Shown: positions 1-3,703 of the stretch, piece by piece | How positions within the stretch are numbered: the stretch's first letter is position 1 | Layout: each line of letters starts with the position of its first letter | Assembly (NCBI RefSeq): GCF_044324785.1 | Contig: NZ_CP172127.1 | Direction: 5' to 3' (one strand) | From: Escherichia coli | GTDB taxonomy: Bacteria > Pseudomonadota > Gammaproteobacteria > Enterobacterales > Enterobacteriaceae | DNA length: 64,000 nt | Notes under the pieces: model-generated | What the model was told of the DNA's origin: nothing | The model's database searches: none | The model's input: the letters and a program-made list of their open reading frames with translations, nothing else | Position numbers and translations under genes: made by a program

Positions 1-3000
1 GGATGTAAAAGGTAACCTGTCACGGCATGAACAAAGCATGGTCGTCATTCAGGCTCCGACATTAAGCCAGAAAGATTCTCTGTTATCCGTTAATCCGCTA
101 ACCGTAGCTGCAGATAAAAAATCGACGACCACATTGACCGTTACTGCGCACGATTCCGACGGAACTCCGGTGCCGGGGCTGGCGCTGCAAACCCGCAGTG
201 AAGGCGTTCAGGATATCACCCTGTCTGACTGGACAGATAACGGTGATGGTAGTTACACACAGATGCTGACCGCCGGAACGACATCAGGTTCAGTAACACT
301 GACGCCGCAAATTAACGGTGAGAGTGCGGTAAAAGAATCCATTGTCGTTAATATCGTCCCTGTTGTCTCATCCCGCGACCATTCATCAATAACAATAGAT
401 AACGTATCGTATTATGCCGGAGACGACATCAAGGTTAGGGTGGAACTGAAAGACGACAGCAATCAACCGGTTGCTTATCAAAAAGAAGAATTGGTAAAAG
501 CCGTTACTGTCGAAAACAGCAAACCTGGAGCCACGATTGTCTGGAACGAAGAGCAGCCGGGCGTTTATGCCGCGAATTATCCGGCCCATAAGCAAGGGAC
601 AGCACTAAGGGCACAACTTAGCCTTCACAACTGGAATGCTCCACTGCAATCGCATATTTATAACATTGAGGCAAACCAGAATAAGGCTCGCGTCGCCACA
701 TTATCAGCGACGAATAATGACGTTTACGCCGATAAAAAGACATTTAATACCCTCACTATCAACGTCACTGATGAGAGTGATAATCCCCTGACAAATCATC
801 AGGTCACCTTTAAGAATGAAAAAGGAAGCGCTGAATTTGTCGAACCGCCGCAGCAAAATACGGATGCATACGGTGTTGCTACAATCAATATGGTAAGTCA
901 GGTTGCGGAAGAAAATACGATTAGTGCCACGCTGCCAAATGGTTTCTCACAACGGATAATTGCGAAATTCGTTAGCGATTCGAGTACGCCAAAATTCAAA
1001 CAACTGGTTGCCGATCCAGATACCATTATTGCTGGCAACAGCCAGGGCAGTACTCTGACCGCCACCGTCACAGACTTTCATAACAACCCGTTAAAAGATA
1101 TGAAAGTGAATTTTGTGGCACCTGGTGGCTCGCAACTGGACAACACGACCGCCACAACAGACCAGTCCGGTATTGTGCGGGTGCACCTGACCAGTTCAAA
1201 AGCTGGTAGCTATTCCGTCGATGCCTCGCTTGAGGCGGATAAAAATATTCACCAGTCGGTCACGATCACCGTGGTCCCAAACAGGGAACAATCGGTAATG
1301 ACCTTAAATGCCGGGTCAGGCAGTGCGATCGCTAACAATACAAATACCGTTATCCTGACAGCCAGTGTGAAAGATGTGTATGGACACCCGTTGCCGGATG
1401 AGGATGTGAAATTTACCTTGCCAGCCTCCATGACCGGGAACTTCACGCTAAGTAGTGAAACCGCCCGCACCGATGCAAACGGCGATGCCGTGGTCACATT
1501 GCGAGGCACAAAAGCGGGTGAGTTTACAGTTACGGCGACGCTGACCAGAAATAATACCGTTGCTCATCAGCAAGTCACTTTTATTGGGGATACAAACAGC
1601 GCGCAGCTCCAGCCGCTGACTGCCTCATTAAATACCATTGTTGCGGGTAACAGTACGGGGAGTACCCTGACGGCAACGATCCTGGACGCTTACCAAAATC
1701 CGCTTAAAGACCAGCTGGTCACTTTCCAGAGTAACGATGTCACTCTAAGCGGAACAGAAGTCACCACCAATACGCTGGGTCAGGCGACGGTAACAATGAC
1801 CAGCAATATTGCCGGACAACATAACGTCGTGGTGAGCCGGAAAACGCAACCCTCCGATAATAAAACGTTTAGTTTATCAGTGCTCCCGGATGAAAGTTCG
1901 GCGAAGGTTATAAGTATAACCGGAGCCGAAAAAACGATAACGGTTGGCGAAAACATCACGCTACGGATACTCGTCCAGGACGCGTTTAACAATGTAATCG
2001 CGGGTCAACGCGTCAGATTAAGTGCGCAGCCAACAGCTCACATTACGATAGGCGATACGGCTTACACCGATAATAACGGTTACGCGTACGTTAATCTTAT
2101 TAGCACCCAGCCAGGGGTTTATCAGGTGACGGCAACGCTGGACAATAACAGTAGTAGTAAGGTTGACGTGAATGTGGCAAATGGCAAGCTCGAGTTAACA
2201 TCATCGAAGCCAGAAACCACGGTCCATAACAGTGAAGGTATTACGCTGACCGCAACGGCGAGAAATGCTCGGGATGAATTAATGCCTGGACAAATTATCA
2301 CCTTTAGCGTAACGCCTGAAGGTGCAACGCTAAGCAATACAGGGGAAGTCCTTACTGACCAGTATGGTCAGGCCAAAGTGACGCTGACCAGTGACAAAGT
2401 GAATGTCTATACCGTTACGGCCACAATGGGCAAAGATGTTCCCGTTCAGAGCCAGGTAACGGTTGCGGTTAAGGCAGATGCTAAAACGGCACATGTTGTG
2501 AGCGTTGTTGCTTCTCCTGACATCATCACCGCCGACGGCGTTGATAGCAGCACCATCACTTCACGAGTAGAAGATGATTACGGATTTCCGGTTGAAGGTG
2601 TCGATGTTAGTTATGCCTTAGACACCAAAGGCAGCCCGGTAGTTAATATTCCAACTACGCGTACCGATCAATCCGGGCAAGTCACGGCGACAATAACCAG
2701 TACATTGGCAGAAACTTTAACAGTCAATGTGCAAGTTCCTGGTACAGCCAACCAATCCGCAACCATTACATTGGTTGCCGACACGGCCGATGAAAGTAAG
2801 TCAATTTTGAAATCCGACGTTGACACTCTGAAGGCTGACTACCAGCAGAGCGCAAAACTTACGCTAACATTGCAAGACAAGTACGGTAACCCGATAGTGA
2901 CGTCTGATCATCTGGAATTTGTCCAGTCAGGCCCCTTCGTGAACTTTCTCAAGTTGAGCGATATTGATTACAGCCAAAGAAATTATGGCGAGTACACCGT

Positions 3001-3703
3001 TACTGTCACTGGCGGAAAAGAGGGAACAGCGACCCTCATTCCCATGCTGAACGGGGTTCATCAGGCAAAATTAAGCGTATCGCTGAATCTCATCCACTCG
3101 ATAAAAGAAATGTCCGGTCATGTCACTGCAAACAACCATACCTTCTCCACGGCTAAATTCCCGAGCGAAGGTTTTGCAGGAGCGTATTACACACTCAACA
3201 ATGATAACTTTGAAGCGGGTAAAACCGTTGATGATTATATGTTTTCAAGTTCACAGAGTTGGGTGTCTGTCGATGCGTCAGGTAAAGTTTCTTTCTCAAA
3301 TATCGGCGATCAAACGTCAGTCACAATAAGTGCTGTTCCCCGACAAGGAGGTACAACCTACCAGACCTTAATTAAGCTGAAAGGCTGGTGGGTGAATAAT
3401 GGAAATCATACCAATATCTGGCTAGCTGCCAATGCGCTCTGTCATGCTAAAAATGATGGATATACTCTTCCTGGCATCACACATTTGACGTCTGGCGAAA
3501 ACAAACGCACGCAGGGATCGCTATATGGTGAATGGGGGAACGTTGGAGCGTTTTCCAGTAATTCGCCATTTACACCGGGTGCTTACTGGACAAATGAATC
3601 TGATGATTACAATAGGCACTACTATGTGCAGATGCTAACGGGTATGACCGGAAGCGACGCTGATTCCAGCCCCCAACTGACCGCCTGCCGTAAATCACTT
3701 TAA
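1..3703 (+). CDS. Invasin/intimin-family (inverse autotransporter type) adhesin, C-terminal passenger portion; 5' end lies upstream of the window
   Basis: Reading frame is open from the window edge (track ORF 38..3703 is only the first in-frame ATG). More than 10 tandem ~100-aa Ig-like repeats with a recurring TLTATV..D..GNP pattern, ending in a Cys-containing C-type-lectin-like tip domain as in invasin/intimin. Stop TAA 3701-3703 followed by a hairpin. Confidence 0.8.
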   Translation, partial: DVKGNLSRHEQSMVVIQAPTLSQKDSLLSVNPLTVAADKKSTTTLTVTAHDSDGTPVPGLALQTRSEGVQDITLSDWTDNGDGSYTQMLTAGTTSGSVTLTPQINGESAVKESIVVNIVPVVSSRDHSSITIDNVSYYAGDDIKVRVELKDDSNQPVAYQKEELVKAVTVENSKPGATIVWNEEQPGVYAANYPAHKQGTALRAQLSLHNWNAPLQSHIYNIEANQNKARVATLSATNNDVYADKKTFNTLTINVTDESDNPLTNHQVTFKNEKGSAEFVEPPQQNTDAYGVATINMVSQVAEENTISATLPNGFSQRIIAKFVSDSSTPKFKQLVADPDTIIAGNSQGSTLTATVTDFHNNPLKDMKVNFVAPGGSQLDNTTATTDQSGIVRVHLTSSKAGSYSVDASLEADKNIHQSVTITVVPNREQSVMTLNAGSGSAIANNTNTVILTASVKDVYGHPLPDEDVKFTLPASMTGNFTLSSETARTDANGDAVVTLRGTKAGEFTVTATLTRNNTVAHQQVTFIGDTNSAQLQPLTASLNTIVAGNSTGSTLTATILDAYQNPLKDQLVTFQSNDVTLSGTEVTTNTLGQATVTMTSNIAGQHNVVVSRKTQPSDNKTFSLSVLPDESSAKVISITGAEKTITVGENITLRILVQDAFNNVIAGQRVRLSAQPTAHITIGDTAYTDNNGYAYVNLISTQPGVYQVTATLDNNSSSKVDVNVANGKLELTSSKPETTVHNSEGITLTATARNARDELMPGQIITFSVTPEGATLSNTGEVLTDQYGQAKVTLTSDKVNVYTVTATMGKDVPVQSQVTVAVKADAKTAHVVSVVASPDIITADGVDSSTITSRVEDDYGFPVEGVDVSYALDTKGSPVVNIPTTRTDQSGQVTATITSTLAETLTVNVQVPGTANQSATITLVADTADESKSILKSDVDTLKADYQQSAKLTLTLQDKYGNPIVTSDHLEFVQSGPFVNFLKLSDIDYSQRNYGEYTVTVTGGKEGTATLIPMLNGVHQAKLSVSLNLIHSIKEMSGHVTANNHTFSTAKFPSEGFAGAYYTLNNDNFEAGKTVDDYMFSSSQSWVSVDASGKVSFSNIGDQTSVTISAVPRQGGTTYQTLIKLKGWWVNNGNHTNIWLAANALCHAKNDGYTLPGITHLTSGENKRTQGSLYGEWGNVGAFSSNSPFTPGAYWTNESDDYNRHYYVQMLTGMTGSDADSSPQLTACRKSL

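Follow-up and report, generated by a model that had tools for sequence, protein, structure and literature searches.

An adhesin gene beside kptA in an Escherichia coli genome is a member of the IatD group of inverse autotransporters

Which gene crosses the left edge of a 64,000-nucleotide stretch of Escherichia coli DNA (RefSeq assembly GCF_044324785.1, contig NZ_CP172127.1; hereafter the window) and ends beside kptA, and what does its product do? The original prediction, made from the sequence alone, described a large strain-specific adhesin and did not recognize it as a named gene. The gene is iatD, which was named, cloned and tested in strain SMS-3-5 (EcSMS35_4876, ACB20062.1 / WP_000168882.1) by Goh et al. 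2019 in mSphere (PMC6714894); in a megablast comparison with 5426 complete E. coli genomes, the RefSeq label of the matched segment is 'iatD: inverse autotransporter IatD'. A 2019 publication thus already covers the gene together with its architecture, patchy distribution and a first phenotype, and RefSeq names the gene routinely. Positions 2-3703 of the window very probably encode the passenger that the chromosomal type Ve adhesin IatD exposes at the cell surface, in a copy that we infer to be intact. The parts of the gene that fall within the window are the following.

2..3703, + strand: 3' 70% of iatD (codons 514-1746 and the stop), type Ve inverse autotransporter passenger (open frame, near-identity to IatD)
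80..3094, + strand: ten tandem Big_1/Invasin_D3 immunoglobulin (Ig)-like domains, overall span (Pfam, self-profile, PDB sequence matches)
80-358, 386-643, 698-976, 1001-1276 and 1301-1588, + strand: Ig units 1-5
1613-1885, 1913-2185, 2192-2473, 2501-2782 and 2804-3094, + strand: Ig units 6-10
Residues 27-119, 129-214, 233-325, 334-425, 434-529, 538-628, 638-728, 731-824, 834-927 and 935-1031: the ten Ig-like units in the window protein (self-profile)
3101..3376 (aa ~1034-1125), + strand: invasin-D4-like Ig domain, predicted to pack against the tip (Pfam, phmmer, AlphaFold2, Foldseek)
3377..3700 (aa ~1126-1233), + strand: C-type-lectin-like tip domain (AlphaFold2 model, Foldseek)

On the + strand, frame 2 stays open from base 2 until a TAA at 3701-3703, giving 1233 codons that cross the left edge (within this frame the scan for open reading frames (ORFs) found no stop, and no start at the window edge), and the remaining two + frames of the same stretch are crowded with stops. 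The translated product is identical to residues 514-1746 of IatD from strain N3 (WP_160117231.1, 1746 aa) at 1228 of 1233 positions (99.6%) without a gap; window base 1 therefore falls at iatD codon 514, and the window supplies codons 514-1746 of a full-length ORF of 1746-1747 aa. IatD of SMS-3-5 is of equal length over this part, has no indels and agrees at 1213 of 1233 residues (98.4%), with 5 of the 20 substitutions lying within the ~120-aa tip. Both values satisfy the >98% amino acid identity reported among IatD orthologues (PMC6714894), and the 90%-identity protein cluster of IatD contains 1685 member sequences, exclusively from E. coli. The position of the gene agrees as well: kptA lies convergent 120 bp 3' of iatD, as in the orthologous loci (the left flank, yjiJ, falls outside the window). 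Both its near-identity and its locus place the segment in the IatD orthologue group. IatD was missing from the comparators proposed originally (FdeC/EaeH, YeeJ, SinH and intimin). ORFs of 69-86 aa that overlap iatD on the minus strand were considered and rejected as unsupported, and Rfam and tRNA scans over the whole window gave no match.

The passenger consists largely of Ig-like repeats. Pfam Big_1 matches the window protein in nine stretches (408 bits, E 6.5e-125) and Invasin_D3 in nine (306 bits), while a profile derived from these repeats themselves resolves ten units of ~90 aa (E 1e-22 to 1e-35 each after iteration; hmmsearch), of which unit 2 is the most divergent. Sequence matches of the repeats in the PDB are to FdeC (4e9l), invasin (1cwv), intimin (6tpl) and InvE (5n40). 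The protein thus has the tandem Big_1/Invasin_D3 domains toward the C-terminus that characterize type Ve passengers. The window-equivalent part of the gene measures 3699 nt and is open in all nine alleles compared, a constant length that agrees with the published report of an invariant repeat number (PMC6714894).

After the tenth unit comes a domain resembling invasin D4, followed by the tip. Pfam Invasin_D4 matches aa 1051-1111 at 25 bits, marginally below its cut-off of 27; the final 200 aa align with invasin D4-D5 (1cwv; phmmer, E 2.7e-5; invasin chain 307-462); and strands 9-107 of an AlphaFold2 model cover the D4-like domain. This model, computed on a 35-sequence alignment, has a mean predicted local distance difference test score (pLDDT) of 96 and a predicted template-modelling score (pTM) of 0.89. 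The first-ranked Foldseek match in the PDB is invasin D4-D5 (1cwv; template-modelling score (TM) 0.81, E 6e-13, 199 columns, 24% tip identity), ranks 2-5 are the intimin structures 1f00, 3ncx, 2zqk and 1e5u (TM 0.55-0.63; 0.60-0.63 for the first three), and lower ranks are occupied by true C-type lectins (CLEC12A, langerin and snake-venom C-type lectins) at probabilities of 0.89-1.00, with CLEC12A and snake-venom proteins at 1.00. The window part has two cysteines only, C1147 and C1229; both lie in the tip and are invariant across the 35 homologues, and C1147 aligns with the cysteine that comes first in the D5 disulfide of invasin. The model and the fold search confirm a capping C-type-lectin-like domain (CTLD) with a disulfide, a trait of the intimin/invasin/YeeJ subgroup. 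With the D4-like domain added to the ten self-profile units, the Ig-like domains number 11, so that the predictions of a passenger of at least 1230 codons, more than ten Ig-like repeats, a C-type-lectin-like tip, an end 120 bp from the kptA stop and an invasin/intimin-type adhesin were all borne out. An exhaustive HMMER search of representative proteins recovered 272 tip homologues; the nearest outside IatD are 46-48% identical and C-terminal in other large proteins, and those whose source is named are E. coli Ig-like or inverse-autotransporter proteins. A word-indexed protein search with the C-terminal 300 aa returned two short fragments only and was uninformative.

The tip is likely a ligand-binding module, and its nearest structures raise two alternatives to be weighed. 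IatD resembles invasin of Yersinia pseudotuberculosis in having a rod of Ig domains that ends in a D4-D5 superdomain with a lectin-like fold and a conserved disulfide; invasin is the top structural match of the tip, and the sequence match to 1cwv spans aa 746-1200 (E 5e-24). Binding of beta1 integrins by the D4-D5-like tip, leading to uptake by host cells, might be expected from such a likeness, and is nevertheless very improbable. The integrin-binding Asp911 and the synergy residue Asp811 of invasin, which we take to be chain positions 417 and 317 (on the assumed numbering that places the disulfide at Cys907-Cys982), pair with Asn and Ala in IatD (phmmer against 1cwv), and Asp at these two positions is not conserved in the 35-sequence tip alignment. 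A tip without these aspartates makes an invasin-type integrin interaction unlikely. Moreover, invasin has 4 Ig-like domains against 11 in the window part of IatD, the tip identity to invasin is only 24%, and binding of extracellular matrix (ECM) proteins was not seen for SMS-3-5 IatD (PMC6714894).

That IatD is a variant of intimin binding a translocated Tir-like receptor is more remote still, to the point of being negligible. The two share type Ve architecture and a lectin-like tip that matches 1f00, 3ncx and 2zqk, the beta-domain of intimin from enteropathogenic and enterohaemorrhagic E. coli (EPEC/EHEC) is homologous to that of IatD orthologues, and there is a partial match to the NCBIfam intimin equivalog (NF033627, intimin_all). 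This match, however, scores 83.6 bits with the window part and 363.9 bits with the full orthologue, where the curated cut-off is 1400 bits, and the tip is 15-18% identical to that of intimin. Intimin is encoded in the locus of enterocyte effacement (LEE), whereas iatD lies between yjiJ and kptA and is also carried by strains that lack LEE, the environmental isolate SMS-3-5 for example; IatD also has many more Ig repeats. We know of no Tir partner for IatD.

Among inverse autotransporters of E. coli, the closest comparison is with SMS-3-5 IatD itself, which is the product of the same gene, has the same Big_1 repeats and CTLD cap and is likewise followed by kptA 120 bp downstream, the 20 substitutions over the window part being the difference. 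YeeJ and IatC are likewise reported to have a barrel, many Big_1 repeats, a CTLD cap and a biofilm phenotype on over-expression, and are reported to have a LysM domain; they differ in occupying other chromosomal loci (PMC6714894) and in their tips, given the 46-48% identity of the nearest tips outside IatD. The best NCBIfam match is Ve_IatC_Nterm (1132 bits for full-length N3 IatD and 263 bits for the window part, with a cut-off of 2400). The Ig repeats nearest the N-terminus of the window protein have their top PDB sequence match in FdeC/EaeH (4e9l; E 1.3e-29); the fdeC gene lies at another locus and was found in 67% of the genomes surveyed by Goh et al., who reported a CTLD cap for YeeJ, IatC and IatD only, not FdeC (PMC6714894).

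Intimin, invasin and the IatD orthologues suggest what the missing N-terminal 513 residues would contain: a signal peptide for Sec, a LysM-like segment in the periplasm and a beta-barrel of 12 strands. After export by Sec, the LysM-like segment would anchor the protein to peptidoglycan and the beta-barrel assembly machinery (BAM) would insert the barrel, through which the C-terminal passenger would be threaded outward as a hairpin, its Ig domains folding one after another. The ten Big_1 domains and the D4-like domain would then form a rod of roughly 40-50 nm, holding the disulfide-stabilized tip beyond the lipopolysaccharide layer, where it may bind a ligand. Over-expressed in K-12, SMS-3-5 IatD was displayed at the surface and produced strong biofilm, both on plastic and in flow chambers, but caused neither autoaggregation nor binding of ECM proteins (PMC6714894); a review enters IatD under 'biofilm formation' (PMC7312957).

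Is the copy in the window intact? A beta-barrel and LysM domain had been predicted to lie upstream of the window. The barrel is there in the orthologues: IAT_beta (PF11924) occupies residues 148-423 of the 1746-aa N3 protein (E 1.8e-108), the domain is present in seven intact orthologues of identical gene length, and in every orthologue examined the barrel falls within the 513 codons upstream of the window-equivalent part. Several observations weigh against an intact, functional adhesin in the window strain. The 5' 1539 nt of its copy fall outside the window, and with them the start codon, the promoter and the parts expected to encode the signal peptide and the barrel; the LysM half of the prediction stands less firmly than the barrel, as the Pfam match in the N3 orthologue (residues 79-99) is weak (E 0.026, 14.9 bits against a cut-off of 20.9), although Goh et al. 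reported a LysM domain for IatD (PMC6714894); and the functional data on IatD come solely from over-expression in K-12 induced with isopropyl beta-D-thiogalactoside (IPTG) (PMC6714894). In addition, iatD is broken elsewhere: by a +1 frameshift at codon ~60 (C8 in place of C7) in 3 of 3 O157:H7 genomes sampled; in MB52, whose divergent allele (90.4% identical) is split by an IS3-family insertion sequence (IS) 35 nt upstream of the equivalent of window base 1 (locus L003:627-7203); and in MB53, where the gene is cut to its last 354 nt beside IS1 and yjiJ and its neighbours are deleted (locus L004:6289-7343).

These broken alleles give substance to the possibility that iatD of the window strain is a pseudogene, a frameshift or an IS having disrupted it beyond the left edge of the window while the passenger stays open. 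In the O157:H7 genomes the C8 run at nt ~178 leads to a first stop at codon 67 and the gene is annotated 'frameshifted', yet the passenger part is fully open. We consider such a fate improbable for the window copy. The seven full-length copies sampled outside O157 are all intact, including that of N3, which at 99.2% nucleotide identity is the nearest relative of the window allele and in which the C tract is interrupted (CGCCCCC). Furthermore, the window allele differs from N3 by 25 synonymous and 5 non-synonymous changes, a ratio of non-synonymous to synonymous substitution rates (dN/dS) of 0.06; the corresponding values are 0.13 against the SMS-3-5 type, 0.15 against O157:H7 and 0.22 against MB52. 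The passenger in the window is under purifying selection. Per-domain dN/dS over nine equal-length alleles ranges from 0.07 to 0.34, with the maximum in Ig10 (0.34). Diversifying selection on the tip was considered and rejected: dN/dS of the CTLD is 0.21, and 5 of 20 substitutions relative to SMS-3-5 amount to a mild excess only.

The tract at codon ~60 is a homopolymeric run of C at iatD nt ~178-185 (for example L005:1462-1700), which is C7 and in frame in O145:H28, 100181, G8 and DG342-2 and is interrupted in SMS-3-5 and MB52 as it is in N3. The C8 tract of O157:H7 could mark a fixed pseudogene or a slippage-prone switch; the 2019 paper of Goh et al. does not mention the tract (PMC6714894). 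A broader proposal, which we regard as tentative and rather unlikely, is that IatD may be a receptor-specific adhesin for host or other surfaces, with a distinct ligand and with expression gated at this tract. The tip could recognize a distinct ligand because it lacks the aspartates that we take to bind integrin in invasin and is 15-24% identical to the invasin and intimin tips. If the proposal were true, IatD would not be a generic biofilm factor, and the C tract would be a slippage switch or a means of lineage-specific on/off locking.

How is iatD distributed, and does it take the place of yjiJ? DNA of iatD is present in 641 of the 5426 complete genomes (11.8%), always chromosomal, single-copy and between yjiJ and kptA, and 637 of the 641 have it at a coverage of at least 80% with an iatD annotation. 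O157 labels appear on 10 of 40 evenly spaced rows of the ranking of iatD matches. In the survey of Goh et al., 6% of 126 genomes and 10% of ECOR strains had a complete iatD (PMC6714894). The prediction of a strain-specific locus where K-12 has yjiJ thus holds in that the gene is absent from K-12; yjiJ itself is kept. In all iatD-positive loci examined with the full gene, the arrangement is yjiJ, 210 bp, iatD, ~120-180 bp and kptA, and since yjiJ is retained next to iatD there has been no replacement. In K-12, only 12 bp separate the stop codons of yjiJ and kptA. Accordingly, iatD is a presence/absence polymorphism of ~5.6 kb between two kept genes.

The right breakpoint of this indel is exactly the K-12 kptA stop, and for this reason KptA of the window has ten additional C-terminal residues (encoded at 3824-3853) relative to the 184-aa K-12 protein, as in most iatD-positive strains examined; kptA of iatD-positive strains is 585 nt long, and that of K-12 555 nt. 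The left breakpoint lies inside the last ~50 nt of yjiJ, where identity falls. No convincing flanking direct repeats or target-site duplication were found around iatD at the N3 locus, and its GC content of 46-50% is not clearly foreign; the polymorphism may be either a gain or a loss. In the O157:H7 genomes sampled, kptA is annotated as frameshifted too.

The spacer between iatD and kptA (3704-3823) is exactly 120 bp long, the kptA stop codon being at 3824-3826 on the complementary strand. It and the gene beyond it hold the following features.

3719..3746, + strand: strong hairpin with a 12-bp stem, 15 nt past the iatD stop (fold of 3695-3825: -37.3 kcal/mol, z -4.2)
3772..3796, strand not assigned: palindrome GCCTGATCCGCTGCGCTTATCAGGC, like a repetitive extragenic palindromic (REP) element, in the iatD-kptA spacer (sequence, fold)
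3824..4408, - strand: kptA (RNA 2'-phosphotransferase), convergent with iatD, 194 aa (NCBIfam NF002012, 424 bits, 1-184 of 184)

The hairpin at 3719-3746 is a possible transcription stop, with a short T-run; a scan for consensus terminators did not call it. The palindrome at 3772-3796 we take to be a REP element by recognition of its sequence type rather than by a tool. Its hairpin, 3' of iatD, shares an exact stretch of 14 nt, GCTGCGCTTATCAG, with yjiJ of K-12 at the 3' end of that gene (locus L002:8525-8545); this identity may be the scar of a deletion or insertion, or chance. The neighbourhood of iatD includes a second accessory insertion, a gene for a pentapeptide-repeat protein of ~660-700 aa that lies upstream of yjiK, between ytiA-like DUF3343 and yjiK-like genes, in N3 (locus L001:2813-4903) and SMS-3-5 (locus L007:34470-36443) and is absent from K-12.

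Elsewhere, the window contains the conserved block yjiH-yjiG-iadA-hypT-iraD-uxu-gntP-fim-nan and a dense defence island at 30381-62889 (~30.4 kb onward). Positions 6001-31000 (iadA to nan) are at best 98.2% identical to any of the 5426 complete genomes, with 3 records only at 99% or more; because this core block reaches at best 98.2%, the source strain seems to come from a lineage poorly represented among complete genomes. Of the segment from 31 to 56 kb of the window, at most 62% is matched in one place by any complete E. coli genome. The contents of the island are listed below.

30381-33742, - strand: McrBC-like pair
35240-41200, + strand: type I restriction-modification (R-M) genes hsdM/S/R
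41620-43024, - strand: AbiEii and a DUF6088 partner
Within 30381-62889: CbtA/YeeU toxin-antitoxin, RadC and DUF932 (CP4-like backbone)
Within 30381-62889: GTPase and WYL proteins
52060-58349, + strand: 1138-aa DEAD/DEAH helicase with a second M and S pair (second type I R-M-like set)
58371-59057: unannotated 228-aa ORF
59098-62889, - strand: Dsr1 SIR2 protein

The window strain shares iatD with ~12% of complete E. coli genomes, and a strain with an intact iatD is usable as a model for studying the ligand of the tip and the native regulation of the gene. The frameshift in the poly-C tract of the O157:H7 copies sampled matters for counting IatD among the adhesins of EHEC, as one 2020 review table does.

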